Under the pieces are notes generated by a model. The model had not been told where the DNA came from. It was given only the letters and a program-made list of their open reading frames with translations, and did not search any database. From assembly GCA_964502005.1 (NCBI GenBank), contig CAZCUX010000029.1, forward strand, positions 32,468-96,467: a DNA stretch of 64,000 nt, in the 5' to 3' direction. Made by a program: the position numbers and the translations under genes. Positions 632-64,000 of this stretch are shown piece by piece (position 1 is the stretch's first letter; each line of letters begins with the position of its first letter). This DNA is from an uncultured Enterobacterales bacterium (GTDB lineage Bacteria > Myxococcota_A > UBA796 > UBA2385).

Positions 632-647
632 ATGAATCGCGATTCAG
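632..647. repeat. Palindromic element copy aTGAATCGCGATTCAg
   Basis: The stop codon of the minus-strand dynamin gene (644-646) lies inside it. Followed by TTTTT. Confidence 0.9.
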
Positions 648-5189: not shown

Positions 5190-5205
5190 CTGAATCGCCA
5201 TTCAT
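5190..5205. repeat. Palindromic element copy cTGAATCGCCATTCAt
   Basis: In the dynamin-operon upstream / desaturase downstream gap. Followed by TTTTCT. Confidence 0.9.
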
Positions 5206-12978: not shown

Positions 12979-14269
12979 ATCGCGATTCAGTGGTTGGAAG
13001 CGCAGGAAATACCTGGGTTTTCTTGCTGGCTTGGATAACGCTGGACATTGTGTACTTTTTGTGGTATTGTTCGGATGTTCCTCGTCGACGGGCAAGCTGC
13101 CGGTGGCATCGTTGTTTGCGTCGTCCAGCGAGGCTGGTTCGACCTACGAAACGGTCACCGAAGAGAGCCCCTCGCCAACCGAAGACAGCGCCGCCATCGA
13201 CGGCTTGCCCGAAGACCCGCCATGGCCCACCGACGGCGATGGTGTGGATGCAGGCGGCGACATGGACTGCCCCGACCTTCTGACGCCGTGCAATCACGCC
13301 GTTCGACTGGCTGTGCGCGACGAAGCGGGTGCATTCTGGCCGATGGACGGCCCTCTCGCAATCCGTGCGAGTGTCCCCGATGTGATGATTGTAGACCACG
13401 GCGTTCTCGACGGTCGCCATTGGCGCTCGCTGTGGCTGACTTGGGTGGATGTCGACCCTTCCCATATTCCGGCGGAAGCCAACGCCGAAAACATCCTTAC
13501 TACGGCTGTGTTGGCCTTTCCCGATGATTTGGTGACCAACGCCGCGGCCTTTTTGGACCTATTGCACGGTGCCGGGCCCTACGATTGGGTGCGTCAACGA
13601 ACCGACACCTGGAAACAAGGGTACCGCATCGTCGACCCTGACCGGGAGGTCTTCTCCGACGGCGACACCGTCCAGCACGCGCTTCTCGTTATCGACCTTG
13701 ACTTGGAGAGCGCGCCGGAGTCCGTGCAAAACCACTTTTATGTGCTCACCTCCAACGATGGCTTTTCGTTTGAACGGGGCGCAGAGCTCGTCTCTGACCG
13801 CATTGGCACCGACCCCGATTGCTACCCGCTCGGGTCCGCCGACTTCCCTGCGCCCGACCAGTACCCGTCCGTGTTGCCCTTCTCACAATCGTTGGCCGGC
13901 GATGGCCGCTGGGCCTGCAATGTCGCGGGCTACCAACAATTCACGCGCTACGAAGGCACGTTGGCCCGGCAAGCGGAGACCGGCGAAGGCGCGCGGGGCA
14001 TCACCGTCACATCGACCACGATTGTCGATGGCGTGCGGCATGTATGGGGCCACGTCGACGCCGACCCCCCAACTACCGCGGGCCAGGTGGACTTTGTACA
14101 CACCATCGCCTACGACGATGGCTCCTACGCGCCTGTCGACCTTGTGGTCGATGCCGACGACCTTCCAGGCGGCGAGCATGGCATCCATGCGCCAACGCTG
14201 CTGCGGATTGGTTCCGGCATCGAATTGCTCGTCTACCACACACTGTTGGAGCCGCCGGGTGTCCACTGA
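12968..14269 (+). CDS. Hypothetical lipoprotein
   Basis: The n-region KRRK plus LFVVLFGC lipobox is followed by an acidic Pro-rich linker. It overlaps the nuclease gene by 11 nt, and its TGA stop (14267-14269) is again inside the palindrome. Confidence 0.5.
   Translation: MPAESRFSGWKRRKYLGFLAGLDNAGHCVLFVVLFGCSSSTGKLPVASLFASSSEAGSTYETVTEESPSPTEDSAAIDGLPEDPPWPTDGDGVDAGGDMDCPDLLTPCNHAVRLAVRDEAGAFWPMDGPLAIRASVPDVMIVDHGVLDGRHWRSLWLTWVDVDPSHIPAEANAENILTTAVLAFPDDLVTNAAAFLDLLHGAGPYDWVRQRTDTWKQGYRIVDPDREVFSDGDTVQHALLVIDLDLESAPESVQNHFYVLTSNDGFSFERGAELVSDRIGTDPDCYPLGSADFPAPDQYPSVLPFSQSLAGDGRWACNVAGYQQFTRYEGTLARQAETGEGARGITVTSTTIVDGVRHVWGHVDADPPTTAGQVDFVHTIAYDDGSYAPVDLVVDADDLPGGEHGIHAPTLLRIGSGIELLVYHTLLEPPGVH
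12975..12990. repeat. Palindromic element copy CTGAATCGCGATTCAG (perfect 16-mer)
   Basis: Contains the nuclease stop TGA (12976-12978) and codons 3-8 of the next gene. Confidence 0.9.
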
Positions 14270-14281
14270 ATCGCCATTCAG
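14266..14281. repeat. Palindromic element copy CTGAATCGCCATTCAG
   Basis: Contains the lipoprotein stop TGA (14267-14269). Confidence 0.9.
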
Positions 14282-16001: not shown

Positions 16002-17203
16002 ACGACCGCACGCTTTTGTGGGTCAGCGTCGTCGTTGTGGTCGGATTGCACCTTCCCGGCCTCGCGGCGGGGCCCCTCGCCGATGACCCTTTGCGTTGGG
16101 TAGAGGCTTGGACCGACGGGAGCGCGACGCTGCGCTGGTTTACGCAGCCCTTCCCGGACACGCCGGGGCCACTGCCCGAAGCATTCAGCCCAAAGCTCTA
16201 CCGGCCGATATGGCACCTTTCGTTTTATTTGGACGTTGTGCTCTTTGGCGCGCCGCGCGGGTTTGCGCCCTTGCTCGGCCCGCGGTTGGAGAGCCTGTGT
16301 TTGCACGTGCTCAACGTATGGCTGTTGGGGCGACTGCTTCGGAGGCACTTCCCCGATGCCCCGTGGAGCCTCGTAGCGGCTCTCTACGCGGTGCATCCGC
16401 TCCTCGTTGAGCCGACAGCCTGGGTGAGCGCGCGGTGCGGTCTGCTGGCCACCACGGGCCTGCTGTGGGCCGGCGTCGCGCGGCACCCGGTCGCGGTGGT
16501 GGGGGCGGTGATGCTTGCCGCGCTGTCGAAAGAAACGGGTCTCGTGGCGCCGTTTTTGCTCGCGGTCTGGTTGCCCGCCGAAACGCCCGGCCGAACCCGG
16601 AACGTAGCGTTGGCGACGGCGGTGGTTATCGGTGTGTTGGGTGTGCGCACCGTGATTTTGGGCACGCCCCTCGGGGGCTATGCCGACACCCTGCCCCTTG
16701 CCTCGGGAGCATGGTGGACCGGTTTGCGGGGACACATCAGCTTTCTCGTTGTGCCCGTGCCGCTGACGGTCGTGGGCGGGTGGACGCGCGTTGTTTTGGG
16801 AATGCTTGTGCTTCCGTTGCTCGCGGTTGGGTTTCGCAAAGGACAGGGACGCGTGGTAGCATGGCTGTTGGTCGCGCTCTTGCCCACTCTGTCTCTGTTC
16901 GCGCGTCCGTTGGATGGCCTCGATGCGCGCTTCCTCGCGGACGCGGTGCCGCCGGTTGTAGTGGCCCTGGTGATGGGCATACAAAGCGTGCCCGGCCGTT
17001 GGGCGGCGGTGCTGGGAGGAATCATTTGGCTTGGCTTGGTGGGCGCAGCAGCGGAGCGGGCGGACGCATTTCGAGAGGCCGCGATGCGCATCGAAACGGC
17101 ACGGGAGCAGCCGGTTCCGGTGCTTCCCGCGACGCAACGAGGGGTCCATTTGAATGCCAACTTATGGCCTGCGCTGTCCGAAGCGCCTTGGGCAGACAAA
17201 TGA
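15998..17203 (+). CDS. Polytopic membrane protein of the GT-C / DUF1736 (TMTC/PMT-like) family
   Basis: A YRPIWHLSFYLD motif and multiple TM helices. The GTG start overlaps the upstream stop (GTGA). The TGA stop (17201-17203) is embedded in the TGAATGGCGATTCA palindrome. Confidence 0.55.
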   Translation: MNDRTLLWVSVVVVVGLHLPGLAAGPLADDPLRWVEAWTDGSATLRWFTQPFPDTPGPLPEAFSPKLYRPIWHLSFYLDVVLFGAPRGFAPLLGPRLESLCLHVLNVWLLGRLLRRHFPDAPWSLVAALYAVHPLLVEPTAWVSARCGLLATTGLLWAGVARHPVAVVGAVMLAALSKETGLVAPFLLAVWLPAETPGRTRNVALATAVVIGVLGVRTVILGTPLGGYADTLPLASGAWWTGLRGHISFLVVPVPLTVVGGWTRVVLGMLVLPLLAVGFRKGQGRVVAWLLVALLPTLSLFARPLDGLDARFLADAVPPVVVALVMGIQSVPGRWAAVLGGIIWLGLVGAAAERADAFREAAMRIETAREQPVPVLPATQRGVHLNANLWPALSEAPWADK

Positions 17204-17215
17204 ATGGCGATTCAG
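17200..17215. repeat. Palindromic element copy aTGAATGGCGATTCAg
   Basis: Contains the GT-C membrane protein stop TGA (17201-17203). Confidence 0.9.
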
Positions 17216-19266: not shown

Positions 19267-22200
19267 TCAGGAAACGCCGCGCAGGCGCCAAACCAGCGCA
19301 AACAAGGCGGGGACAACCACCAACGTCAATGCGGTGGCCACGGACAGGCCGCCGAGCACGATGGCCCCAACCCCCCGATAGAGTTCGGAGCCTGAGCCGG
19401 GAAAGAGCACCAGCGGGAGCAAACCAACAAGAGACGTAAGCGACGCCATAAAAATCGGACGCACACGGGCGGATACCGCTTCGGTGGTTGCGGTGGCCAG
19501 TGCGTCGCCTTCGCGCAGGCGGGCCAACGCGCCGTCGACAATCAGGATGGCGTTGTTGACGACGACGCCAATAAGAATAACAAACCCAAGAGCGGTCATC
19601 ATGTCAAGTGGCTGTGGGCCGAGGCCCCAGTCGACCAAACGGAGCCCCAGCACACCGCCTGCGCCCGCGAGAGGAATGGTCACGAGAATAACCAATGGTG
19701 CCAAAAAGTCCTCAAACAAGGCGGCCAGCAACAAAAACGAAATCAACGTGGCGAGGGCGAGCACTTCGAGCATTCGCTGCTGTGCATCTTCGAGCTTCCC
19801 CGCCGCGCCGGACAAGGACACCTCGATGCCGTCGGGCAATGTCATTTCGCCGAGCACTTCGCTTCGAATTCGGCCGAGAGCGGCTTCAATTGGCACGTCA
19901 TTGGGGGGCGAGACTTCGAGTGTGATGGCCCGGCGACGTTCGATGCGGCGAATGGTGGTGGGGGACAAGGTCTCGACGGCATCGGCCACGGATGCGAGGG
20001 GTACAATCGTGCCTTCGGGCGTGACCATCGGCATCGCAAGGAGCGAGTGGGGGTCCGTAGCGGCGGGCTCCGCCTGAACGACCACATCCAAGCGTGGCTC
20101 ACCCGAAGGCGCGAGGTCCCCGACGTAACGACCGTCGACGAACGCATCGACCGCTTCGCCAATGTCCGCGGCGTGAAGCCCCATCGTTGCGGCCACTTCC
20201 CGCTTGGGGCGCACCTGCAGCTCGGGGCCTCCGAGGTCGAGCGCGGGATTGGGCCGCACACTCGCCTCGGGCATCACTTCGTTGAGACGCCCCATGACGG
20301 TTTTCCCGGCGCCCACGAGGGTCGGAATATTGCCCCCGGACAGCTCCAGCTCAATCCCGCGTCCGCTGGACAAGGAACGGCCAAACAAGCTGGCTTGGCT
20401 ACCAAATCCCATCACGCCCGGCACGCTCCGCAACGCGCCATTGACGAGGTCCACCACAGGCCCAATCTCATCAGGATTGGCCGCGCCGGCACCCATAAAG
20501 CCACGTCCAGGCAAGGCCACAAAAAAGCTGCGATAAACAGCGGGAAACTTGGCCTCACCGGAAGCCAAATGCGGCAACATACGTTGCTGCACCCGCTTGC
20601 CAACGTCGTACATTTCTTCGACGCCATAACCGGTCGGTGGGACCACTACGGCAAACATAAAGTTGCGGTTTCCAGTAGGCAGGTATTCCATCGGGGGGAT
20701 GAGGGTCGCGCCAATGCCCAATGCGAGGGCCAATGCGGTACCGACTGCCACGAGGCTCGCGACGCGAGATGCGACGACCGAATGCACACGGGCCACCAAA
20801 CCGTCACGCAGGCGGGAAAAGCGTCCTGGGGTCGTGGTTGTGGTGGTTGGAGCGTGGCCAAGCCACCGTGCGGCCGCCGACGGAATCACGAGCACCGACA
20901 CGACCAACGACAACCCCACGGAAACCGAAATCGCCACCGCGACGTCGCGCAACAGCTCGCCGACTTCGTCCTGCCAAGCCACAATGGGCAAGAACACCGC
21001 CGCGGTGGTGGCAGTGGACGCAACGAGCGCGCCCCATACTTCGCGGGTGCCTTGGTAGGCGGCTTCGGCGGGCGACAAGCCCTTTCGTCGCCAGGTATCG
21101 ATGTTTTCGAGTACGACGATGGCATTGTCCACCACCATTCCCACCGCAAACGCCATCCCCGCAAGCGACACGACATTCAAGCTGCGACCCAAGAGGGTCA
21201 TGCCGAGCATCGTGCCGACCACACAGGTAGGAATCGCAGTCGCGATAATAGCAGACGCAGAGACACTGCGCAAGAACATAAGCAATACAACGACAGCGAG
21301 CACACCACCGACCAAAAGGTTGTTTTGCACCAATGTCAGTGCGCCGCGAATATATTCGCGTTGGTCGGAAACAACCGAGATATGTAGTCCCCGCGTTGCG
21401 AGGACTTCTGCGTCCAATCGCTCCGCTTCGGCGATGACCTCTTCGGTTACTTCCAACACATTCGAGCCGGATTCGCGGTCGAATAGCAGCGCCAGCGACT
21501 CCTTGCCGTCGTTGATGACGTAACGCTCCGCTTGCCGCAAGCCGATGCGTGCGGTGGCCACGTCGCCAACGCGCACCACCGAACCGTCCGTCTGCACGCG
21601 AACCACGAGCTGTTCAAGCTCCTCGGCTACGCTGGGCGCGACTTCGGTGCGCACCACAAATCGCTGCTTGCCGAGTTCAATGTCGCCGCCCGACACATCC
21701 GTGAGGCCGCGGCGAACCGCTGCAACCAGCTCGCCGACGGGAATGCCGCGGCTTGCGAGCGCGCGGCCGTCAAAGGCCACTTGTACTTCGCTGTCGCGGC
21801 CCCCGAACACACGCACCGAAGCTACGCCCGGAATTCGCTCAAAGCGCGGGATGACGTCCTCTAGCACCCAGGTTCGTGCCGCAATGGGCGTGCGACCATC
21901 GAGCCCCGTAATCGTGAGCACCGCCATGGGTGGCCCCGAGGTGTCCGCCGTCGCCAACACAGGTTCCCGCGCAGCTTCTGGATACTCGGGCACCTGCGCG
22001 AGCCGGTTCGAAACCCGCACCAGCGCCTCTTCCATTGGCGTGCCGACCTCGAACTCCAACGTCAACGTTGCCGCGCCATCGGTCGCCTCGCCTACCATTC
22101 GGTCGAGGCCGTCTACCGCCTTGAGCACCTCTTCTTGCTCGAGTAGAATCTCGTTCTCGACCTCGGACGGCGCCGCGCCGGGCCACGCCGTTGTCACCGT

Positions 22201-23047: not shown

Positions 23048-24196
23048 TTGGTTCGTTGGGCGATGTTGATGCTCGGTGGTATCGGTTGTGCCAGCAAGCC
23101 CGCGGACAGCGGGGATTCGCAGGCGCCTGCACCCCCTGTCTCCGATGACCCCAGCGCGCGGGGGCCGTATGCGGTGGGCGTCACGACGCTTCAAGTGACA
23201 GACCCCCGCGGAAAGCCTCTTACGATCGAGGTTTGGTATCCAGCCGAGGTGGCTGAAGGTGCCGAGCCAGCGACGTACCCGCCAACGACCATCGCCGGCA
23301 CGGCGGTGCGAAATGTGCCGCCGGACTTGCGGGGCGCGCCGTACCCTTTGTTGGGGTTTAGCCACGGTTTTTCGGGAATTCGCTTTCAGTCCGTCACGTT
23401 GATGGAGCACATTGCCAGCCATGGCTATGTGTTGGTTTCCCCGGACCACACCGACAATACATTTCTCGATATGGACATCGATGCCGTCCCCCGTGTCGTG
23501 ATGGAGCGCCCGGACGACGTGCGTTATAGTATCGACGCGCTCGTCGAAGAAGCAACAAGCGATAGTCCCTATTTGGGTGGCTTGGTTGATAGTGCCGACG
23601 AATGGAGTATTCTCGGTCATTCGTTTGGCGCGTATACTGCGCTTGTGTTGGGTGGTGGTGAGATTGACTTTTCTGGATTTGAGGAGTATTGTTCTCGCCA
23701 TTCCAATCTGGCGTGCAGTTTTGTGGGCAACTTGGACCCCGCAGAACTCGAAAACCATGGACAAGCGGACGACCGTGTGGGCCTGACCATTCCGTATGCG
23801 CCGGGTCTTTGGTATGCATTTGGAATTGACGGCGCGGGGCTCGCGTCGGTACGTCGACCGTTTTTGTTTGCGGGTACCAAAGACGATGTGTTGCCGTATG
23901 AGGACGAAGCGGTCTATACATACGAATACTTGTCGTCCCCAAAGAAGATGGCTACCTTTGAAAACGCGGGCCATTATCCGTTTAGCGACATATGTGTATT
24001 GCTCAACGACATTTGGGCTGAATGCGACCCATCATCGGGCGACTGGGCAGATGTGCCAACCGTGCAGGCCCACACCAACACGCTGACCACCGCCTATTTG
24101 GAGGTGGAGCTACGGGGCCGCACGGAGCTGTCGTCGTATTTGGCGCCGGAAATGTGGGAGCCCGTCGCGGGAGTCACCCTCGACGTTGCGGAGTAA
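23048..24196 (+). CDS. Secreted alpha/beta-hydrolase lipoprotein (lipase / PAF-acetylhydrolase-like)
   Basis: Lipobox LGGIGCAS, a nucleophile elbow GFSHGFSG, and downstream Asp/His residues. Locally lower GC. Confidence 0.65.
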   Translation: MVRWAMLMLGGIGCASKPADSGDSQAPAPPVSDDPSARGPYAVGVTTLQVTDPRGKPLTIEVWYPAEVAEGAEPATYPPTTIAGTAVRNVPPDLRGAPYPLLGFSHGFSGIRFQSVTLMEHIASHGYVLVSPDHTDNTFLDMDIDAVPRVVMERPDDVRYSIDALVEEATSDSPYLGGLVDSADEWSILGHSFGAYTALVLGGGEIDFSGFEEYCSRHSNLACSFVGNLDPAELENHGQADDRVGLTIPYAPGLWYAFGIDGAGLASVRRPFLFAGTKDDVLPYEDEAVYTYEYLSSPKKMATFENAGHYPFSDICVLLNDIWAECDPSSGDWADVPTVQAHTNTLTTAYLEVELRGRTELSSYLAPEMWEPVAGVTLDVAE

Positions 24197-36160: not shown

Positions 36161-36622
36161 ATGGCCAGCATTCTGGAAGATGTCCATCTCGGAGCGGCCT
36201 TCATGGCAGAGGCGCTCACGAGCGAAGGGTATCGGGCGGATTTCTCGCCGGATTCGTTGTGGGAAATCGACCGTTTTTTTGACGAACAATCGTCGCGGGG
36301 AAAGCCCGTTGCGGGTGGCCTGCTGTCGGCAGGTCTGGGCGGTCACTTGTTTACGATTGGCGCTTATGTTGGGGAAGTAATTCGTCGCGGTGTTGGCGGA
36401 GAGTGGTATGGCGACGACAACGACCCTGACGCCGAAATCAATGTGAAGCTGGTTCTACCCAATGGAACGGCGTGCTGGCCCGTGCAGCGGGTCATGAAGC
36501 GGTTCAAGGAAGGAGAAGAAGCCGCCATTGCGCCATATGGGGCAGCTGCGGGGCTCGTGATGCCGCCGCGGCCTCCTCCGGAGGAACCGATTCCCGTGCG
36601 CCCGTGGTGGAAGTTTTGGTAG
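36161..36622 (+). CDS. Hypothetical protein
   Basis: Clean ORF with a Pro-rich C-terminus. Start placed at MASILEDV. Confidence 0.4.
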   Translation: MASILEDVHLGAAFMAEALTSEGYRADFSPDSLWEIDRFFDEQSSRGKPVAGGLLSAGLGGHLFTIGAYVGEVIRRGVGGEWYGDDNDPDAEINVKLVLPNGTACWPVQRVMKRFKEGEEAAIAPYGAAAGLVMPPRPPPEEPIPVRPWWKFW

Positions 36623-38301: not shown

Positions 38302-40863
38302 TTATGCTTTCGCCTCAGCTTTGTCGTTTGTTTCGACCGACAACACCGATGCCAAGGGTGTTCCCGCGAGGAGACGCCGCAGCACGTCGGCTACACTCTC
38401 GCCGCCCAGAATGGCCAAGGGTGCCATCGATGCGCTGACCTTCTCGACCATCGCGCGGTCGCTAAACGCCTGGAGCGCCGCGATGAGGTCCGGCGACACG
38501 GCCTCGGCTTTGGAAACCACAGCCTTGACCTCCGCCTCTAGCTCTCGAATGCGTTGCTCCATCGCGACTTTCGCCGCCTCCGCTTGTGCTTGCTGACTGC
38601 GTGTGCTTCGGACAAGCTCTGCGGTATGAATGGCGTCGAGGTCGGCCTGCGCGGCCTTCTCGGCATCCAGACGACGCGCGCGGAGGGCCAGCTCGCCCTC
38701 GACCCGCGACCGGTTGACGGCTTGCTCTTTGTCTATGCGCGCGACATCGAGGGCCAGCTCCATTCGGCGGGTCTCTTGCTCGGCTTCGACAATCTGGCGC
38801 CGAATCTCCTCACGACGCCGCACCAAAGCCAGTTTTCGCTCTTCGGCCGCCAAGGTGAGTGTCTCATCGACCACCGCGTGCTGTGCGCCGACCAGCAGCT
38901 CCGAGATGTGCTCGTCGCCAATGTCGATGCCGAGCACTTCTACGTCATACACACGCATTCCGTTTTCGGAGAACAAGCGGCCCGGTCGCTTTCCGTCTTC
39001 GCCGGGCCGACCGAGCAAGGTGTCTCGCACCATTTCGATGGCATCGGCGTGAAACTGCTGGATGCCGACTTTCTTGATGGCATTTCGCAGCACCGAGCGG
39101 AGGTGGTCGGTCAGGAACTTGACGTAGTTTTCAACGTGAAACCACTTTGCTGGCTCGCCTTCGAAGTTGACGCGGTAGGACAAGGTGAGGGAGACGGAGC
39201 AGAGGTCGCGGGTTTCGGCATCGACGCGGTCGGAGACGTTGTTGTGCAGCGACCGGAGGTAGACTGTGCGGTGGGGCTGTGCGTCGGACTTGGGGATGCC
39301 GGTGGAAAGCGTGATGGTCTCAAGCGTTTCGTCGTATTCGAGCAGCCGCGCTTTGGGTCCGACGACCACCTCTCGCTCCCCCGTGCGACTTACGACTTGG
39401 ATGGCGTAGCCCGTCCACACGGAAATGGTGACCGCGCCGTCGTAACGGGTGTCGAGGGTGATGGTGCGGGGCGGCGTGAACGACGTAGCGCGCTCAATGC
39501 CGTCGCCCACGGCGCGCTGCCGCCCGCGCTCGGCCGCCACCACCGGCGCTTGCTGCGGAGCGGACTCGCCGGCGCCGACAGCCTCTCGCAATCGCCGATT
39601 GACCTCCATGGCTTCGGTGTTTCCGGGAAACCACAGCGCGACTTGGTGGGGTTGCAGCACGCGCCGCACGATGACTTCTTCGCGTGGGTCGGCGAGGAAC
39701 ATCTTGGGACCGCGGACGAGCCGAATCTGTCCTGAATGGCGATTCAGTACGTACCGACCTTCGCCCGCGGGGATGGCGACCGCGTAATGAATCTGCTGGT
39801 CGCCATAACGGATGATGGCATGCTCGGGACGCGGGAAATAAATCATTTGGTCGCGGCCGGTGACGAACAGTTCGTCGCCGACATTGTGCTTGCCCTTGTC
39901 GTCTTCGTAGGGCGCGATGACCTTGATATAGAGACCGCTGTTTTCGTTGAGTTCGATGGCACGGAACTTTCGCCGGCCACCTTCCTCGACGAACGCTTCG
40001 GTGGGTTCGGGAAAAACCACCGCTGGTCCTTGAATGAAGCGTTTGTTGCCATCTTCATCCAGAAGGACACAATATTCGAGGCGTTCGAGCGTGACGGCAT
40101 CTTGAACGTATTCGCCGTGGGGGCTGCGCAATACCTCGACACCCGTAGGCGGAATATAAAAGCTGACCTCCGTGCCCTGAATGACGAGGCGGCGGCCCAA
40201 CGTGAGGGCGGAGGTGTCGACCTCGGTGGTGGCTGGGTCGGCTTCGTCGCCGCCGGCCTGCCGCTCGACAACCGCGTCATTCCAGTTTTTGCGTGCGGCC
40301 TCTTCATCGTAAATGCGCACCAGCAGGAATTGATTGGACCGAAGCTGGTGCCCTTGCACGACGCGCGCCATTTGGCCGGGCCACAACGCGAAGCTCACGG
40401 GACCCGGAAGATTGACCTTGTGGCCGACATGCAACTCAGTGAGATTGTTGACAGTTCCGTTCTTTGGAGGCCGGCCGTCGAGACTTGGATTCTTGACTGT
40501 GACGTACCAGCCTTTGGGTGCGGTCGGGAACAGCAGGGTGGAGCGCTCGAGCAAGCAGGCTTCGAAACGCTTGGTGTCTTCGTTGAAGAAGACGGGTTGG
40601 TCGGTGTTGGCGAGGCTCGTTTTGTAGGGACCGACGTAGACGTTGATGTTTCCTTTCGTTTGGTCGGAGATGAAGGCGAACTCGTTGGGGGCGAGGACCA
40701 AGTCACGTTCACGGGAGTTGCTCAAGAGACCTCCAGGGCGCACTTCGTAGATTCGTGTCGAAGTGACACCATCTAAATTGTCCCTTTTGGCACCGGAAGT
40801 CCAGTTCGTTGCTTCGATCATGACCGATGGTGACAATGTGAAAAACGACGCGACTTGATACAC
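38302..40863 (-). CDS. Major vault protein (MVP) homologue
   Basis: N-terminal LAPNEFAFISDQTKGNINVYVGPYKTSL parallels human MVP [26 protein letters not shown]. Reiterated vault-repeat motifs (VRGPKMFLADPREEV, IQGPAVVFPEPTEAFV, ELFVTGRDQMIYFP) are followed by a shoulder-like domain and a long C-terminal cap-helix coiled coil (EERKLALVRRREEIRRQIVEAEQ...). Confidence 0.75.
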   Translation of the reverse strand: MYQVASFFTLSPSVMIEATNWTSGAKRDNLDGVTSTRIYEVRPGGLLSNSRERDLVLAPNEFAFISDQTKGNINVYVGPYKTSLANTDQPVFFNEDTKRFEACLLERSTLLFPTAPKGWYVTVKNPSLDGRPPKNGTVNNLTELHVGHKVNLPGPVSFALWPGQMARVVQGHQLRSNQFLLVRIYDEEAARKNWNDAVVERQAGGDEADPATTEVDTSALTLGRRLVIQGTEVSFYIPPTGVEVLRSPHGEYVQDAVTLERLEYCVLLDEDGNKRFIQGPAVVFPEPTEAFVEEGGRRKFRAIELNENSGLYIKVIAPYEDDKGKHNVGDELFVTGRDQMIYFPRPEHAIIRYGDQQIHYAVAIPAGEGRYVLNRHSGQIRLVRGPKMFLADPREEVIVRRVLQPHQVALWFPGNTEAMEVNRRLREAVGAGESAPQQAPVVAAERGRQRAVGDGIERATSFTPPRTITLDTRYDGAVTISVWTGYAIQVVSRTGEREVVVGPKARLLEYDETLETITLSTGIPKSDAQPHRTVYLRSLHNNVSDRVDAETRDLCSVSLTLSYRVNFEGEPAKWFHVENYVKFLTDHLRSVLRNAIKKVGIQQFHADAIEMVRDTLLGRPGEDGKRPGRLFSENGMRVYDVEVLGIDIGDEHISELLVGAQHAVVDETLTLAAEERKLALVRRREEIRRQIVEAEQETRRMELALDVARIDKEQAVNRSRVEGELALRARRLDAEKAAQADLDAIHTAELVRSTRSQQAQAEAAKVAMEQRIRELEAEVKAVVSKAEAVSPDLIAALQAFSDRAMVEKVSASMAPLAILGGESVADVLRRLLAGTPLASVLSVETNDKAEAKA
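39732..39747. repeat. Palindromic element copy CTGAATGGCGATTCAG inside the MVP coding region
   Basis: Perfect half-sites. It is in-frame coding on the minus strand and may be coincidental or a genuine intragenic copy. Confidence 0.7.
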
Positions 40864-40893
40864 GAATCGTGAATCATGGATTTACCTACTGAC

Positions 40894-42561: not shown

Positions 42562-42577
42562 CTGAATGACGGTTCAG
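42562..42577. repeat. Degenerate palindromic element copy cTGAATGACGGTTCAg
   Basis: 27 nt downstream of the sulP stop. Followed by TTTGG. Confidence 0.7.
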
Positions 42578-44279: not shown

Positions 44280-44756
44280 ATGCGAAATCTCGCTGTTACA
44301 GCAGGTCTGGTGTGCACCTTACTTGCCTGCGGCGGTCCAGCTGGCGGTCCATCGGACTGTGAAGCAATGGGCGCCGGCGCCGCCCGCGATGAGTGCTGGT
44401 CGACCCACGCCCCCACGCTGTTTCGGGCCACCAGCGACCCTGACGCGGCTGTCGCCTTGATTTCCCAGCAGGTCGAAGACCAGCAGATTCGTGACTTTAT
44501 TTGGCTCACGATTACCCGTGAGGTCGACCCCAGCAGCTACCGCTACTGTCGCCTCATCGAAGAGCAAGCCCTGGCGGAGCGTTGCCGCGTGTTGGTGAGC
44601 CGACCGCACTTGCACCGCGAGCTGGTGGGGGGCCAAGCGGGTGGCGCAGGAGGCGGCCCTCCTCCAGGTGGTGGACCTCCGGGTGGTGGACCTCCGGGTG
44701 GTGGACCTCCGCCGGGGCATCGGCCACCACCGGGGCAGAATGCGCCGCAACCCTAA
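44280..44756 (+). CDS. Lipoprotein with C-terminal (GGPP)n repeat
   Basis: Lipobox LLACGG. C-terminal GGGPPPGGGPPGGGPPGGGPPPGHRPPPG. Confidence 0.45.
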   Translation: MRNLAVTAGLVCTLLACGGPAGGPSDCEAMGAGAARDECWSTHAPTLFRATSDPDAAVALISQQVEDQQIRDFIWLTITREVDPSSYRYCRLIEEQALAERCRVLVSRPHLHRELVGGQAGGAGGGPPPGGGPPGGGPPGGGPPPGHRPPPGQNAPQP

Positions 44757-45909
44757 GGTGACGCCGTCCAACCCTAAGTTGGTTCGCGTGGAACATACAA
44801 AGTAGGCCATGCGTTCCGCAAAGGCGAACCAGCTGAACTCGCCCGTCAGCGGCGCTCTGGACTACGTGCTTGCGGCGAGAACGTCGTGGTGTTCTGCCGT
44901 TTGGGTGCTTCCGGCCCTCGCCTGACCCGCAGCGGTATTCGGTGTACGATTTTCACGCGTCCGCACGTATCGTTGTGCGTACCCGTCGCGTGCGTAGAAA
45001 CGAAGGCCGGTCGCGTGTGCTCACCGACGACATGACGCGTCGAAAAGCCGCCTCCTGCGCCGTTCTCTTCTGCGCCAACGGTGGCGACGGGACGGCGCAG
45101 GGTTGTCGGCGCTGGATGACGCGACGAAGACTTGCCGCGGGCCAAGGCGAAGAACCTGGGGGCGGAGCTTGGTACGCAGCGGGCCCGGTCGTGGGTGGGC
45201 GGATGCGGCTGCGCAGACGATGCCGGACATTGGCGTCGCGGTGGGGCGTCGCGGTGGGGCGTCGCGGAGGCTGCGGAGCGGCTTGGCTCCGGCATGCTCC
45301 AAGAACACCAATACCTCGAAGAAGGTCCTCCCCGCAATCGGGCCTCACCGCATATAGATGGAGGAGACGCTGAGACGATTGCAGAATGTGGTCCGGCGAG
45401 GAGGACGATTCTTCAAGGTATTTGGGGACACGCACGGTTTCTGTTTTGCTTCGTAAGGCCGGAAGACCAGCAACGAAAAACAGACCCTCGGTTTGCTTTG
45501 GAGAAGCGAAGATGAGGTGAGGGAGTGCGTTGTGGCGGGGGTGTTCCCCGCTCGGCACACTCTCATCTTACGGCACCGCGACATCGCACGCAAGTGTTTT
45601 TCCACGAAGTGAAGGCCGTTCTGTGACAAAAATCGGAGAACGATGGGTGTTTTTGTCGGTGATCGCGCCCGAAACATACGCCAAAAAGAACGTGCTCATC
45701 GCTGTTGTCGCGGAATGATGTTGGGCTTTCCGCTTGCACAAGTCTGCGACAATTCGGGACAATCGAAGGCGTGGAACGGTGCGTTCTGAGATCGCGACAT
45801 CGATGTCAGGGTCATACGGCAAGAATCGTGCCAACGTATGTGGGCATAAGATCTCGCCGCGCAAGATCCGTTGTATGCGCGATGCGGCAGGAGCGCAGCC
45901 GTTGTGCGC

Positions 45910-50324: not shown

Positions 50325-51331
50325 CGGGATTTGGTTGGCTTCTTTATGTTGCGTTTTCTGCTGAACATGTGGTGGTCCACACAGGCGACACCATCGAATC
50401 GATTGCGCAACAGTATGCTGGAATGGACCCTTTGGCGTTGCGTGCGGCGAATGGGCTGTCGGCGGACGAGCAGCCGCGCCCGGGGACGATATTGCACGTG
50501 CCAAGTCCGCCCGAAGCCGGCGAGGATGCCGCGGTGGTGTTGAGTGTATTTGGCGGAGGCTCGGTCCAGCTTCCCACCGGCGAAACCGCGGACTTGGCGC
50601 CGAGCCTCCGCTTGGCGGCAGGCGCGCAGGTGTGTACCCAAGAAGGTGCTTATGCAACGATTCGTTTATCGGTCGCCGAAAACAATGTGCATGACGACAT
50701 CACATTGCTTCCCGGCACTTGTCTTTCGATTCGGTCCACTACACGCAACGCCCCGCAGCGAAGTTCGCTTCTCACCCTCGAACAGGGGTCGGTGACCGTG
50801 CCGCGCGCGGAAACGGGCGCATCCAACGGAACCATCACCATTGAGACGAAGTCGGGCGTGACCTCCGCGGAATCCGGTGGGTTTCGCGTTCACGTCGAAC
50901 AGGACGCCGCTCGCACGGAAGCCTTGTATACGCCGTTGCGTGTGTTTGGAGCGGGAGTGGAGCAAGCGCTGCTGGCAGGCCAAGGAAGTCGCACGCGGAC
51001 GGGAGAAGCGCCGTTGCCGCCCGTCGCGCTTCCGCCATCGGGCCAACTTATCGCGCCCATAGATGGCGCAACGTTACGAAGACCCGACTTTTCGTGGACC
51101 CGGAGTGAAACGGCGCTCGCCTACCAACTGGAGCTGGCGCGGTCGGAAGACTTTCGGGACATGCTGCTTGGCATGCCGGTCGACCGACCGAGCTGGGAGC
51201 CCGACCGCCTGATGTTGCCGTCCAATGTAGAAGGATTGTGGTGGAGGGTCGCGACGGTTGACCGTCACGGGTTTGTTGGCATTCCAACGCAACCTTGGCG
51301 TTTGGAGTTGCCGGTGGGGGTGGGGCCATGA
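50321..51331 (+). CDS. LysM-domain plus FecR-like domain protein
   Basis: LysM motif (VHTGDTIESIAQQYAGMDPLALRAANGL) and a FecR-like beta-rich region. ATGA overlaps on both sides. Confidence 0.6.
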   Translation: MTGFGWLLYVAFSAEHVVVHTGDTIESIAQQYAGMDPLALRAANGLSADEQPRPGTILHVPSPPEAGEDAAVVLSVFGGGSVQLPTGETADLAPSLRLAAGAQVCTQEGAYATIRLSVAENNVHDDITLLPGTCLSIRSTTRNAPQRSSLLTLEQGSVTVPRAETGASNGTITIETKSGVTSAESGGFRVHVEQDAARTEALYTPLRVFGAGVEQALLAGQGSRTRTGEAPLPPVALPPSGQLIAPIDGATLRRPDFSWTRSETALAYQLELARSEDFRDMLLGMPVDRPSWEPDRLMLPSNVEGLWWRVATVDRHGFVGIPTQPWRLELPVGVGP

Positions 51332-52188
51332 TGCTCTGGTTGTGGAGTGGGTGCACGGTGGCTTTGGCCGCAGGCACCGTGCCGGTGCCCCCAGCAATTG
51401 CGGCGGATTCGGTTCGTCCCGACCTCTTTGCGGCGGCAACTACCGTCACGCCAGACACGAATTCATTTTCCGGATTTCGGGGTCTGTTGTTCGCCAGTCA
51501 TGTGCGGGACCCCCTCGTCTTCCAGCCGGTGGGAGCCAGCGAGCCTATCGCCATTGTCGGGCCGACTACGGGAGTCTTCGCGGGAATAGCCGGGGCAGTG
51601 GGGCCGCTCGCTTTCGGCGCGTCGGTTCCCGTTGCGCTTTGGATACAGTCCGACCTGTCGCCCACGGCGTCGGGGAGTGGCATTGGCGACTTGGCGCTCG
51701 ATGTGCGCGGTTTGGTGCTGGACGGCGCACAATCGCCCTTGGGCGTTGCGCTGCAAGGTCGGTTGACCGTTCCGCTGGGTGGCGCGGATGTTTACCTGGG
51801 ACAACCCGGCGTGTCCTACGAACTATTGGGCGTGGGTTCCGCCACGCACGGCGATTGGCGGTTGTCCGCGGCATTGGGCACGCGCGGCATGCCCGAAACC
51901 CAAGTCGGCGACGAAGTGCTCAACGACCCCCTTCTGTTTCGCCTTGCCGTTGGACACGCCATCGGACCGGCGATGGCCAATCTTGAACTATTGGGCCAGC
52001 GCCAATACAAGGGTTTTTTCGAAGAACCGACGAACAGCCCCGTGGAGGTGATGGCGAGCGGTGCGTATTCCGCGTCAGAGACGGTCGTGCTTCGTGGTGG
52101 CTTGGGAATTGGCCTCAATCCGAGTATTGGGTCACCATCTGTTCGTGTGCTCTTTGGGGTCGGCCCGACGGCGGCGCCGTTGCCGTAG
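51328..52188 (+). CDS. Hypothetical secreted / outer-membrane protein (Gly/Ala/Leu-rich, beta-strand-like)
   Basis: Signal peptide MMLWLWSGCTVALAAG and alternating hydrophobic pattern. Last gene of the coupled five-gene operon. Confidence 0.45.
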   Translation: MMLWLWSGCTVALAAGTVPVPPAIAADSVRPDLFAAATTVTPDTNSFSGFRGLLFASHVRDPLVFQPVGASEPIAIVGPTTGVFAGIAGAVGPLAFGASVPVALWIQSDLSPTASGSGIGDLALDVRGLVLDGAQSPLGVALQGRLTVPLGGADVYLGQPGVSYELLGVGSATHGDWRLSAALGTRGMPETQVGDEVLNDPLLFRLAVGHAIGPAMANLELLGQRQYKGFFEEPTNSPVEVMASGAYSASETVVLRGGLGIGLNPSIGSPSVRVLFGVGPTAAPLP

Positions 52189-57288: not shown

Positions 57289-59916
57289 ATGCGGTGGTGG
57301 CCTTGCTTGTTGTGGGTGGCATGCGCGTCACCGGAGCCGGAACGCCCGGTTGTCGCGCCGAAATGGTCCGTGCCTGAAGGCCCGCTGCCGGACACGGTCT
57401 CGTTGTCGTCGGTCGACCTGTCGCTCACCCTTGACCCCCGCGCCGACCGTTTTGATGGCAGCATCGACCTACATGTGACGGTGAATCGCGCCGAGACCGG
57501 CATTTGGCTCCATGGTCAAGACCTAACAATAACGCAGGTCTCCATTACTCCGCAAGACAGTGGTGTGCTTCCCGCAACATGGACCACACATGGGTCTACG
57601 GGTGTTTCGCGCATCGAAACCAACACAAATCTGCCCCTTGGGCCGGCGACCGTTCATATCGAGTGGTCGGCCCCGTTCGCCACCGACCTCTCGGGTTTGT
57701 TTGTCTTCGAAGAGCGGGGAAATCGGTACGTCCTCGCCAAGTCCGAGTCCATTCAAGCCCGCCGCGCGTTGCCGAGCTTCGATGAACCGCGGTTCAAGGC
57801 GCCTTATCGCATTCAATTGACAGTTCCTGCCGGCTATGTCGTCATCGGAAATCGGGCTGAACGCGCGCGGGAAACCGTCGCCGACGGCATGGAGCGCGTC
57901 ACCCTCGCAGAGACCGCCGCACTCCCGACCTACCTCCTCTCCCTGGCGGTGGGACCATTCGAACGTCGTGAGGGTGCGTCTCTTGGCGCCACTACCGCCC
58001 GCGCGGCTGTGCCCATCACGGGCTATGCGCGACCAGGCCGCACGGTCGACTTGGGCGTCTTGCTGCACACCACCGCCCCCCTCATCCAAACCCTCGAAGC
58101 GGAGACCGGCCTCCCGTTTCCCGACCCCAAACTCGACCTCGTCGCGGCCCCCGCGTGGCCCAGCGGTGCAACCGAGCTCGCTGCCGCCATCACCTACCGC
58201 GAAGAAAAGGTACTGCTCGGCCCTCTCGACGACGCGTCCATAGACCCCGCGGCGCGTCGCGAGATGCTGCGCACCCACGCCCACGAACTTGCGCATATGT
58301 GGTTCGGAAACGCCGTAACCCCCGCGTGGTGGGAAGATTTGTGGCTCAAAGAGGCCTTCGCAAGCTGGGCCAGCCGCCGCGCGCTGACCACCTGGGAACC
58401 CAACGGAGGCCACGACCTCGAAGCAGAGAAGCGGGTCCTCGCCGCGATGGCCAGCGATGGTCTCGCGAGTGTGCGCGCGATTCGTGCCCCGATTTTGGGC
58501 GACAACGACATCCGAAACGCCTACGACAGCATTACCTACGGCAAAGGCATGGCCGTCATCGACATGGTGGACCACGGCTACGGTCCCGACGTCTTCCGCG
58601 CCGCGTTGCGCGACCATCTGCGCACCCATGACGGGCAAACCACCGACACACCCACGTTCTTGGCCGACCTTACCCGCGCTTCGGGGAACCCCAACATCGC
58701 GGAGACCTTCAGCAGCTTCTTGTCGCAGACCGGCGTGCCAGTGCTGCGCGTCGCGGTCGATTGTCCCAACAACGGCGACGCGACGGCAACCTTGCGCCAA
58801 GACCGCTACCGCCCGCGCGGCTCGACCATCGACCCCCACGCCACCTGGACGCTCCCCGTATGCCTCGAAGTCGACACGAGTGAAACGCCCATCTGCACGA
58901 TATTGTCGAGTGCCTCGGGAGAAATGAATCTCGGTTCAGTTTGTCCCACCTGGATTCGACCCAACCCCGGCGGCCACGGCTATTACCGTTTTGCGCTGTC
59001 CCCCGCGCATTGGCGCGCCCTCGCCCTGCACCTCCCCGAGCTGCCCGCGGTCGAGGCCCTGCGAATCGTCGATAGCGCGGCCGCTGGCGTAGACGCAGGA
59101 TGGGTGGGCATCGCCGATGCCTGGACCGTGTTCCGCGCAGCCGCACAGCACCCCGTTGCCGCCGTCGCCGAAGCGCCCTTGGCCCCCCTCGCCCAATGGC
59201 GCAGCCGAATGCCCGCCGAAGACCGCACAGTGTTCGACCCCATCGTGCAGGCCGCGTTCCCCCCCAAAGGTTCAGACGCCACGGCCCTGCTCGCCTTCTC
59301 CGCCACGATTCTCGGCGACGCCACGGCGCGAAAGCACCTCCTCCACGCCCTCGAACGACGTATCCACGGAGACACCCGCGCCCTCCCCGCCGACCTCCTC
59401 GACGCCGCGCTGCGCGTATTCGCCGAAGACAACGGAATCGCCGGTCTACGCGCCCTGCGCCAGACCGTCGTCGCCCAAGACGTCCCCCAGCTCGAACAAG
59501 CCGTCGAAGGCGCATGGGGCTGGGTGACCGATCCGGCCGAGCGCAGCCTCGTCCTCGACGAAACCCTCTCCGGCACCCTCGATCCCCGGGCCGCCGTCGC
59601 CCGCTTGCACAACCTGCTCTCCCACCCGGACGACCGCGTCCGCGTCGCCACCACCGAAACCGTGCGCAGTCGCTTCGATGCCGTCATCTCGGTCACCCCA
59701 AACCAATGGCGCCGAGACACGCCCGCGCTGCTCGGAAATGGCGCCTGCTCGGACGCCGAAGCACGAGTGCTCACCGACTTTTTCGCGGGCCCAGCTGGCG
59801 CGTTGGCACCCGGACACGCCCGAAGCCTCGCCCGCACCCTCGAATCTATTTCCCTGTGCAAAGCCCGCAGCGAGTTGGGAACGCAGATAGCAAGGGCACT
59901 CTCGACAATACCCTGA
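57289..59916 (+). CDS. M1-family zinc aminopeptidase (aminopeptidase N-like), secreted
   Basis: [29 protein letters not shown] (HExxH-x18-E gluzincin, M1 pattern), an upstream GAMEN-like region, and an N-terminal signal peptide. Confidence 0.85.
58924..58939. repeat. Degenerate palindromic element copy aTGAATCTCGGTTCAg inside the M1 aminopeptidase CDS
   Basis: Weaker match. Possibly coincidental. Confidence 0.4.
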
Positions 59917-61758: not shown

Positions 61759-63441
61759 ATGGCCGAACAAACGCTTCGGATACTTCGATTGGCCGGAAAC
61801 GAGGCCGAGATGGGCCGACAGCATGGCGCCATCGTCCGGTCGTGCGGTGGGCGCCCCGACCTGGCGACGTTCTACCCGCAGATGGCCGGGAGAATGTTGA
61901 CCCTGCGTATGGACCACAGCGTACGGCCAGCGGTGCGCGCGGTGTTTCAGCCATTCCTCGCCGCGGCCGCAGACCGGCTCCATGCGCGACGCCTCCGCAG
62001 CTTCGAGTCCCTGGTGCGACGGTCGGAAGCAGGAATGCGCGAGTCCGGCGTCGATATGGACGTCGTGCGCTGGCTCACCGTGATGGATGTGTTCCAAAAC
62101 GGCGTGTCTACCTTCGCACGCATGAAGATGCCCTCGATTACCGGGCTTCAAACGCCGGGCATCGGAATGTGCTCGAGCCTCGCTGTGTGGGGGGAAGCGT
62201 CCGTTGATGGCACCCTCCGCCATGCGCGTAACTTTGACTTTCCGGGAATTGGGGTATGGGACAGCGCACCCACTGTGGTTTTTTGTTCACCCGATGAAGG
62301 TGTGCGCTACGGTTTTGTGACCTCATTGGGAGTGGACCTCCCGGGTGTCACTGGGTTCAACGAAGCGGGAATCACAGTTTCGGCACATACGCGAATGCAT
62401 GTTGACACAGACCCCGATGGTGTGTGTATTGCAGACCTGGGCCACGAGATTGTGCGGCGCGCGCGAAGCATCGCGGATGCCATCGACATCGCCAAAACAT
62501 TGGGTTCGTCGTCGACGTGGGGCCTGTTGGTGTCTTCGGCCAACGAGCAGCGTGCGGTGGTCATTGAAACCACGGGGCGCGCCGTTGCGGTCGTGGACCC
62601 TGGCACGCGTACGTTTCATGCCTGCACCAACCGGTACCAAGACGCGGCCTTGGCGAAAGGCGAGGTCGTGTCGAGCGACGGGTTTACCATCGACTCGGAC
62701 GCGCGCTTCGAGAGCCTGCAACGCACCGCGCGGCGGGGCGGCCTGAGCGCCGAGGACTTGCAAGAGCTGCTGGGGGCCACCTGGGACCCCGCTGCACCCG
62801 CCGACGACCCCGCCGACCGACGCACCGGCAGCTGTATTGTGTCGCCGATTACCGTACAAAGCGTCGTCGTGGAGCCTGCTCTCGGGCAGGTGCGCGTCGC
62901 AGCCGGCCGAGCGCCGACCAGCCGGTCTCCTTGGCGCACCGTGCCGTGGTCGTGGGACGGCGCGCCGGGGCTTGTCGAGGCGGTGGACATCCCGCTCGCT
63001 TCTCCCGAAAGCCCCCTGGCAGCGGCTGAAGCGGCCTATGTCGAAGCGGCGCGGCTTGAGGTAGAAGGCGGTCCCGCGCGGCAGGTGCGCAATCGGCTGC
63101 ACAGCGCGGCGGAGCTTGCGCCCAAGGAGCCGCACCTGCAGTTCTTGGGTGCATTGGCCGCGTTGTCCGACGCGGACCCCGACCTTGCGCGGCAGAGATT
63201 GCAACGCGGTTTGGAGGTCGAGTTCGTGCCGTATCGCCGCGCGCAGCTATTGCGATGGTCGGCGCGCATAGAGGATGCGCTGGGCGCGCCCGCCGGTGCA
63301 GCGGAGCTGCGGGCGACGGCACGTGGGTTGGGGGATGGCGCAGGCCCCGTGTTGCGGCTGTTGGAACGCGACGAGAAGTCGCCCCCGCGGCGAGGGCAGT
63401 TGTACCGCGTCCTTCCCGATGTCTTGTTGGTCGATGCTTGA
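61759..63441 (+). CDS. Peptidase C45-family protein (acyl-CoA:6-aminopenicillanic-acid acyltransferase-like, Ntn-hydrolase)
   Basis: N-terminal LAGNEAEMGRQHG and a candidate nucleophile GMCSS, about 560 aa. Start at the internal MAEQ. Confidence 0.5.
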   Translation: MAEQTLRILRLAGNEAEMGRQHGAIVRSCGGRPDLATFYPQMAGRMLTLRMDHSVRPAVRAVFQPFLAAAADRLHARRLRSFESLVRRSEAGMRESGVDMDVVRWLTVMDVFQNGVSTFARMKMPSITGLQTPGIGMCSSLAVWGEASVDGTLRHARNFDFPGIGVWDSAPTVVFCSPDEGVRYGFVTSLGVDLPGVTGFNEAGITVSAHTRMHVDTDPDGVCIADLGHEIVRRARSIADAIDIAKTLGSSSTWGLLVSSANEQRAVVIETTGRAVAVVDPGTRTFHACTNRYQDAALAKGEVVSSDGFTIDSDARFESLQRTARRGGLSAEDLQELLGATWDPAAPADDPADRRTGSCIVSPITVQSVVVEPALGQVRVAAGRAPTSRSPWRTVPWSWDGAPGLVEAVDIPLASPESPLAAAEAAYVEAARLEVEGGPARQVRNRLHSAAELAPKEPHLQFLGALAALSDADPDLARQRLQRGLEVEFVPYRRAQLLRWSARIEDALGAPAGAAELRATARGLGDGAGPVLRLLERDEKSPPRRGQLYRVLPDVLLVDA

Positions 63442-63560
63442 GGGTTCGGGAGCGCCCTCCTCCCGTTGACTGTGGGTGTTGCTTCGGGTTGGTTTTTCTG
63501 TAGGATGTTGGCTTGGTTTGTTGCGGTTTGTGTTGGGCTATCGTTGGTATGTTCCGTAGC

Positions 63561-64000
63561 ATCGCGATTCAGCCCAAGAAACAAACGCCCAACGCCCATG
63601 ACACAAGCCAACCCACCCCCAACCAAGAATGCAGCGAAAAAGTTGTGTGTGTGGGTGTCGCACACGCGAAGCGGTGGACTCCTCCCTCGGAGTCTGGACG
63701 AAAGGAGGCCGCCCTGGCAACCAAGAAGCCAAGAACCCAAGCCATCCGCAAGCCCCTGAATCGCGATTCAGCCCAAGAAACAAACGCCCAAAGCCCATGA
63801 CACAAGCCAACCCGCCCCCAACCAAGAATGCAGCGAAAAAGGGGGGTGTGGGGGTGTCGCGTACGCGAAGCGGGAGCCCACCCCCACCGGGGAGAGCCCG
63901 AGGGAGCCCCCTCCCTCGGAGTCTGGACGAAAGGAGGCCGCCCTGGCAACCAAGAAGCCAAGAACCCAAGCCATCCGCAAGCCCCTGAATCGCGATTCAG
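63561..64000. repeat. Tandem array of ~200-230-bp noncoding units delimited by CTGAATCGCGATTCAG palindromes (array truncated by the window end)
   Basis: 63573-63771 and 63772-64000 are about 90% identical. Each unit starts CCCAAGAAACAAACGCCCAA, contains GTGTG...CACAC and GGACTCC...GGAGTC hairpins and an AAGGAGG motif, and ends in the palindrome (63756-63771, 63985-64000; a half copy lies at 63561-63572). Unit lengths of 199 and 229 nt are not multiples of 3. Confidence 0.85.

Follow-up and report, generated by a model that had tools for sequence, protein, structure and literature searches.

The DNA analysed here (64,000 nucleotides, hereafter the window) ends in a stretch of non-coding sequence located 3′ of a gene for a C45-family peptidase. 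The features of this locus, in window coordinates, are the following:

61759-63441, + strand: gene next to the array on its upstream side, encoding a C45-family peptidase of 560 aa; TGA stop codon at 63439-63441; PF03417 is found on its homologues
63442-63556, + strand: G/T-rich non-coding leader (A 5%, T 40%, G 37%)
63557-63572: degenerate palindrome TAGCATCGCGATTCAG, left boundary of the array, 3 mismatches
63573-63771, + strand: unit 1, 199 nt, of which 63756-63771 form the terminal palindrome
63643-63680, + strand: variable core of unit 1, holding the hairpins that are found in this unit only
63772-64000, + strand: unit 2, 229 nt, of which 63985-64000 form the terminal palindrome
63842-63909, + strand: variable core of unit 2, with a 30-nt insert (about 63872-63901) and new inverted repeats

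Two head-to-tail repeat units

The original prediction placed two tandem units at this locus, and the alignments bear it out. Positions 63561-63674 match positions 63760-63873 with 93% identity over 114 nt, and the 3′ parts of the units (63681-63771 and 63910-64000) are identical over 91 nt. When both units were aligned with MAFFT, a single 30-nt gap was obtained, corresponding to about 63872-63901 of unit 2; this is the extra sequence of some 30 nt that had been noticed in the second unit. The differences in the G-tracts and the AAGGAGG motif can be read in the sequence as described, and neither 199 nor 229 nt is a multiple of three, as had also been stated. Each unit was said to be closed by a palindrome, and the exact sequence CTGAATCGCGATTCAG is indeed present at the end of each. 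Homology between the units begins at 63561, within the degenerate palindrome, and runs to the end of the palindrome; upstream of 63561 no similarity between the units is found. Both the junction between the units and the right end consist of a full palindrome.

The differences between the units are unevenly distributed. The alignment includes 12 substitutions, 10 of which cluster together with the 30-nt indel in a core of 38 nt in unit 1 and 68 nt in unit 2, the other two being isolated SNPs. It had been proposed that both units share conserved hairpins, and this did not hold: GTGTG..CACAC and GACTCC..GGAGTC are present in unit 1 only, and at that place unit 2 carries different inverted repeats (GTGGGGGTG/CACCCCCAC and AGAGCCCGAGGGAG/CTCCCTCGGAGTCT). 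What is new in unit 2 corresponds to adjacent sequence in reverse complement. A perfect AAGGAGG and five CCAAG motifs, the latter in roughly 10-fold excess, are found in each unit, and the body includes a short internal repeat (CCAAGAAC, 2.6 copies), as is typical of slippage-prone DNA. No copy of the unit body exists elsewhere in the window, and the comparative evidence on it consists of the two copies in the window, from one genome.

The final base of the window (position 64000) is also the final base of the palindrome of unit 2. Either this is a 1-in-200 coincidence, or the repeat boundary is where the source contig breaks; in the latter case, the homology ends at the palindrome and the array may comprise exactly two units.

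Two other tandem repeats were detected in the window, both near-perfect. One, at 44661-44711, has a 15-nt unit (CCTCCGGGTGGTGGA, 3.4 copies) that would encode a Gly/Pro-rich (PPGGG)n stretch if the frame is coding; the other, at 45232-45267, has a 13-nt unit (GGCGTCGCGGTGG, 2.8 copies) and lies in a region of about 1.3 kb (44.8-45.9 kb) where no gene is evident. The same gene-poor stretch includes, on the minus strand at 45819-45833, the sequence TGGCACGATTCTTGC, a perfect match to the sigma-54 promoter core TGGCAC-N5-TTGC.

The leader and the relatives of the locus

The sequence downstream of the C45 gene had been described as C/A-rich and non-coding. This is correct from the degenerate palindrome (63557-63572) onwards, where the strand turns C/A-rich and T falls to 7-11% in the units, but not for the sequence directly after the stop codon, which is the G/T-rich leader. 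The leader is the most extreme and the longest G/T-rich tract of the window; other 100-nt tracts of extreme composition were observed at 23570-23702, 36308-36407 and 51268-51368 (G/T-rich) and at 20884-20984 (C/A-rich). We also considered that the leader might be an inverted copy of the unit with which it would form a long hairpin, and rejected it. The fold z-score of -2.2 is an effect of base composition, which is segregated here; when reverse-complemented, the leader aligns to the unit no better than shuffled sequences do (p = 0.58); and three of the four strain SNPs break predicted pairs; for one of these the partner base was observed, and it is unchanged.

The C45 protein was used to search for relatives of the locus. 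In a set of 5.8 billion proteins, identities above 62% were obtained for two sequences only: P0121, which is identical to the peptidase of the window and is encoded on a 96,467-bp NCBI/Logan contig, evidently the one that the window comes from, and P0001, which differs from it by one amino acid. The nearest C45 peptidases in the GTDB species set are 59-60% identical and come from marine Myxococcota MAGs, and the scan of GTDB genomes with the C45 protein returned relatives at 42-60% identity. The host is a marine myxobacterium, of a marine Myxococcota lineage. In the closest GTDB relatives (59-60% identity), other genes lie directly 3′ of the C45 gene and no array is found; the palindrome is absent from about 70 kb of their sequence. 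A 22-nt pattern specific for the 5′ end of the units gave, in a scan of JGI metagenomes, one chance match in a coding region of an unrelated contig. Protein look-ups based on ORFs of the array and on neighbouring genes led to no further contig covering the array. The collections of plasmids and phages contain no match to the array, and a plasmid or phage origin was discarded on these grounds.

P0001 is encoded on a Logan contig of 4,010 bp (L006, sample SRR23848398) which is 99.5% identical to the window, with 20 differences. Through the leader and the degenerate palindrome the contig extends 27 nt into unit 1, where it breaks. Its last base (4010, equivalent to window position 63599) is an A where the window has a T, and the break falls directly past the first position that distinguishes unit 1 from unit 2. 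Such a break is consistent with one induced by a repeat, so the tandem repeat is probably present in the second strain too. Four of the 20 differences fall within the 131 bp between 63442 and 63572 (leader and degenerate palindrome), which corresponds to a divergence of about 3%, compared with about 0.4% in the genes and roughly 1.6% at their synonymous sites. The leader thus drifts at about the neutral rate, which is consistent with little constraint.

A dispersed palindrome at gene ends

Of the claims made about the palindrome, its role as the boundary of the units stands, but it is not special to the array, since it occurs at seven further places in the window. Altogether the motif (C/A)TGAAT-SGCS-ATTCA(G/T) was counted 9 times in 64 kb where 0.00 copies are expected, and no 12-mer of the window is more strongly over-represented; more copies exist in the 9 kb flanking it. 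The copies outside the array, together with one just outside the window, are:

601-616 and 632-647: two copies between convergent genes, each holding the stop codon of its own gene; the first is the stop of the gene for a 543-aa protein (+ strand), the second that of a dynamin-like GTPase gene (- strand), both from the L011 gene calls
5190-5205: copy located 30 nt past a stop codon, an exception
12975-12990: holds the TGA stop of the Endonuclease I gene (12037-12978)
14266-14281: holds the TGA stop of the gene for a 433-aa putative lipoprotein
17200-17215: holds the TGA stop of the gene for a 401-aa membrane protein, with a convergent gene next to it
39732-39747: copy lying inside a coding sequence (major-vault-protein-like gene), an exception to the location at gene ends
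L011 22176-22191, just outside the window: a single copy with the stops of both convergent genes (a histidine kinase and a CbiA/ArsA-type ATPase)

Seven of the nine well-matched copies lie outside genes or at a gene edge, and the TGA of the palindrome is the stop codon of seven independently called genes, at six sites. The independent gene calls were those of two Logan contigs of the same organism, from sample SRR14492199 (L008 and L011), which are identical to the window over 2-23 kb; Pfam matches and codon statistics agree with these stop-codon assignments. The palindrome is a gene-end motif specific to this lineage, and genes commonly use its TGA as their stop codon. Two further samples have an ortholog of the copy at 12975, in one strain with the central G changed to A, which indicates that the copies are not mobile on the timescale of strains. 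Beyond 16-18 bp, the flanks of the copies have nothing in common.

Two genes that carry copies of the palindrome deserve a separate comment. The 859-aa ORF on the minus strand at 38305-40881, which includes the copy at 39732-39747, shows the domains MVP_shoulder (E 1e-26) and Vault_3 of the eukaryotic major vault protein. The dynamin-family GTPase gene that ends at copy 632 (644-3121, minus strand, 825 aa) lies in tandem with the adjacent upstream gene of the same family (L008 1100-2836, 578 aa), the two forming the usual pair of bacterial dynamin-like genes. Degenerate relatives of the palindrome with a GGTTCAG right arm were also observed: CTGAATGACGGTTCAG at 42562-42577, 27 nt past the stop codon of a sulfate permease gene, and ATGAATCTCGGTTCAG at 58924-58939, within an M1 aminopeptidase gene.

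With respect to how the palindrome might be read, its arms TGAAT/ATTCA are invariant at all sites, while its centre varies (CGCG, CGCC, GGCG) and complementarity is not kept there. As RNA, the bare palindrome would form a hairpin of -3.2 kcal/mol only, and a T run follows it at some sites only; it does not qualify as an intrinsic terminator, that is, a stable GC-rich stem-loop with a U-tract. Taking into account this weak hairpin and the invariant arms, it is more likely that the palindrome is recognized sequence-specifically, on DNA or on RNA, by a putative protein than that it acts as a plain intrinsic terminator. Resemblances to sites of the CRP/FNR operator type, the ParB type or the LexA/SOS box were considered as its possible identity and set aside; its density and its position at stop codons argue against the operator of a regulon.

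Origin of the array

We propose that a non-coding intergenic segment of about 200 bp was recently duplicated in tandem at this locus, between copies of the palindrome, and that the array is hence an intergenic minisatellite; we assign to this reading a probability of about 0.6. That the repeat might be a minisatellite built by duplication between palindrome copies was one of the two options of the original prediction, and it fits the anatomy: homology begins inside the degenerate palindrome at 63561 and ends at a palindrome.

The starting state would have been a single segment flanked by two copies of the 16-bp palindrome that is dispersed in the genome, mostly at gene ends. These copies, which share 12-16 bp, may have misaligned in replication or recombination, and a misaligned replication or unequal exchange within the shared ATCGCGATTCAG would convert an arrangement R1-U-R2 into R1-U-R2-U-R2. 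The outcome would be the order seen at the locus: leader, degenerate palindrome, unit, palindrome, unit, palindrome. A full palindrome at the junction is what is expected of a crossover within ATCGCGATTCAG, and the dispersed palindrome supplies the microhomology that the duplication needs. Outside the core, 2 of about 160 sites differ between the units, which is about the neutral level of divergence between strains, and the duplication is thus young.

The core of one copy would have been rewritten later, in one or a few complex events in which neighbouring sequence was copied in inverted orientation, much as in a template switch at a quasi-palindrome, with a gain of 30 nt and several clustered substitutions. 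Template switching at quasi-palindromes can introduce many linked changes in a single event, and no selection is needed for it. The arms of the core are reverse complements of adjacent sequence, a signature that suggests such a switch. Selection or gene conversion could also account for the identical 91 nt at the 3′ end beside a heavily changed core.

The units probably belong to the 3′ untranslated region or the terminator of the C45 peptidase gene, and no feature of the sequence requires a function of their own. The array is then one more example of a repeat-mediated tandem duplication in bacterial intergenic DNA, and as such it matters little; it may serve to tell strains apart, and it illustrates how quickly hairpin-templated mutation can diversify the cores of repeats. 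Of more interest is the palindrome family, a by-product of the analysis, which would offer a compact gene-boundary signal, amenable to experiments, in a phylum that has been little studied, provided that a specific factor reads it.

Alternative readings of the units

The other option of the original prediction was an array of structured RNA units, for which an Rfam scan and the folding of each unit had been suggested as checks. Following this idea, each unit would be a small non-coding RNA gene or a regulatory RNA module with the palindrome marking its end, either as a minus-strand sRNA transcribed from a sigma-54-like core up to a T5 run or as a CA-rich plus-strand "sponge" for a protein or ribosomes, with GGA/AAGGAGG motifs. 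Several observations are in line with it. The palindrome marks the ends of transcription units elsewhere, local hairpins are present in the core of both units, and on the minus strand each unit includes a TGGC-N7-TTGC core (63717-63731 and 63946-63960), with a T5 run about 70-100 nt downstream. The retention in each unit of this core, of the AAGGAGG and of the five CCAAG may be meaningful.

The checks did not favour this reading. No Rfam family was matched at the gathering threshold over the whole window, and at E<=10 only noise was obtained for 63300-64000, the best score being 17 bits against a gathering score of 58.6. When the units were folded on both strands and compared with dinucleotide shuffles, the z-scores were -0.66, -1.18, +0.43 and +1.02; those of the putative minus-strand sRNA segments were -1.03 and -1.16, so that neither the units nor these segments fold better than shuffled sequence (z from -1.2 to +1.0). 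The hairpins differ between the units, as shown above, and RNAalifold, run on just two sequences, returned no compensatory pairs (0/46 on the plus strand and 0/62 on the minus strand); as there are only two units from one genome, this lack of covariation is weak evidence. The sigma-54-like core does not exceed chance (6 occurrences in the window against 3.9 expected), and we therefore rejected a sigma-54 promoter per unit. A minus-strand terminator at the T5 run was discarded as well, since no stem precedes the run in unit 1. The scan for sigma-70 promoters gave nothing beyond chance, and that for terminators between 63000 and 64000 detected 1 site against 1.6 expected, and not at the palindromes. 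The lack of related sequences in the JGI scan with the 22-nt pattern and in the plasmid and phage collections also counts against RNA modules. A non-coding RNA is the main rival to the duplication reading, and altogether we consider it unlikely that the units are RNA genes or modules.

A bolder version, to which we attribute a low probability, combines both elements: the palindrome would be a previously undescribed gene-end punctuation read by a dedicated putative protein, either as a bidirectional factor-dependent terminator or as an RNA-processing site, with the stop codon at its centre, and the units would be independent sRNA genes bounded by it instead of inert duplicated DNA.

The array might instead work as DNA, by offering three close sites, 199 and 229 bp apart, to a putative palindrome-binding protein, on which a local nucleoprotein structure would form 3′ of the C45 gene, for example a roadblock or boundary element. 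The three copies lie within 444 bp, compared with about one per 7 kb elsewhere, and both the invariant arms with a centre that varies irrespective of complementarity and the weak RNA hairpin point to recognition of the sequence rather than of a hairpin. Against this, duplication alone fully explains the clustering, the entire body of 200 bp was copied and not just the sites, and the first copy is degenerate, with its 3 mismatches. We regard such a role of the array as improbable.

There is also a slim chance that the tandem is in part an artefact of assembly, in which strain variants of a single-copy locus, or of a locus of different size, were strung together. The source is a metagenome-assembled contig, the window ends exactly where a palindrome ends, which is a possible repeat-induced contig break, and the Logan contig of the second sample breaks 27 nt into unit 1. 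However, the junction between unit 1 and unit 2 (...GCAAGCCCCTGAATCGCGATTCAGCCCAAG...) has only about 12-30 nt in common with the left boundary. Its k-mers require that a real tandem junction exists in the reads of at least one strain, which makes a misassembly possible but unlikely. Besides, the contig of 96 kb is otherwise colinear with independent assemblies.

Coding capacity was also analysed. The plus strand is so poor in T that nearly all of the six frames are open, and open frames are therefore uninformative here. GC contents at the three codon positions of the candidate ORFs are flat or inverted (GC1 0.51-0.63, GC2 0.54-0.68, GC3 0.54-0.62) when compared with those of verified genes (0.62-0.74, 0.42-0.59 and 0.68-0.79, respectively). 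For the frame closed by the TGA of the palindrome, a codon-usage log-likelihood ratio trained on the verified genes gave -0.22 and -0.33, whereas the ends of real genes score from +0.17 to +0.36. The concatenated six-frame translation of 63442-64000 matched none of 5.8 billion proteins. With no coding-like composition in any frame and no protein homologue, the ORFs across the repeat are most likely artefacts, in agreement with the original prediction. That each unit encodes a small low-complexity protein such as MTQANPPPTKNAAKK...EPKPSASP (53 and 63 aa), with the palindrome TGA as its stop, is hence extremely unlikely, even if this frame is open through each unit and is kept by the 30-nt indel (a one-in-three coincidence, given the other evidence), one of the two isolated SNPs is synonymous in it, genuine genes elsewhere likewise stop at the palindrome TGA, and ATG codons exist at 63598 and 63797, which are not preceded by a ribosome-binding site.

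Comparison with known systems

CRISPR, integron and MITE structures were considered from the anatomy and rejected. A CRISPR array has unique spacers between short identical repeats, and here the 183-213-nt "spacers" between the palindromes duplicate one another. Neither an integron cassette nor a MITE (with terminal inverted repeats of 8 bp) fits: the bodies are identical and include no ORF, and the body is not dispersed. Tandemly repeated sRNAs are represented by NrsZ of Pseudomonas, the multi-copy RsmX and Qrr, with units of about 100-200 nt. The array resembles them in its tandem non-coding units, its possible sigma-54-type core and its GGA/CA-rich motifs, and differs from them in that a conserved stem-loop architecture between units, a terminator, statistical backing for the promoter and homologues are missing.

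For the palindrome, terminators and REP sequences are the closest references. Inverted repeats are enriched in bacteria just after stop codons, mostly as terminators (PMC6060812). The palindrome shares with intrinsic terminators its location at or just past stops, including sites between convergent genes where one copy can serve both strands; it departs from them in its weak hairpin and the usual absence of a U-tract, and in that its sequence, and not the structure alone, is kept between sites, with the stop codon inside the stem. As the REP/BIME elements (PMC2817692), it is a short palindromic unit with many extragenic copies: 16 bp long, dense (about one per 7 kb) and located outside genes or at their edges. 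It concentrates at the 3′ ends of genes and between convergent genes, where one pair of copies is 31 bp apart (601/632). Nevertheless, a REP is an imperfect GC-rich stem of 20-40 nt (PMC2817692), and the palindrome is perfect over its 16 nt and has AT-rich arms; it lacks a conserved GTAG head and is embedded in the stop codon. REPs are also characterized by a 5′ GTAG/GGAG tetranucleotide and an associated RAYT (Y1 transposase). BIMEs, in turn, combine short linkers with alternating orientation, whereas the array is made of identical bodies of 200 bp.

The array itself is best compared with the intergenic minisatellites or VNTRs of bacteria, such as the mycobacterial interspersed repetitive units (MIRUs), which are head-to-tail repeats of tens to hundreds of bp found in non-coding DNA next to genes. 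Their origin is thought to be slippage or unequal recombination, and their unit variants differ by internal indels. The array is likewise made of head-to-tail direct repeats in gene-adjacent non-coding DNA, with units that differ by an internal indel; it differs in the greater length of its units (199 and 229 bp, against about 40-100 bp), in that only two of them are seen, and in that the body is confined to a single locus instead of being dispersed. MIRUs have been described as minisatellites (PMC3635867). Minisatellites and VNTRs are direct repeats of 10 bp to several hundred bp at one locus, and the array, with spacings of 199 and 229 nt and 93-100% identity between its units, fits this class.
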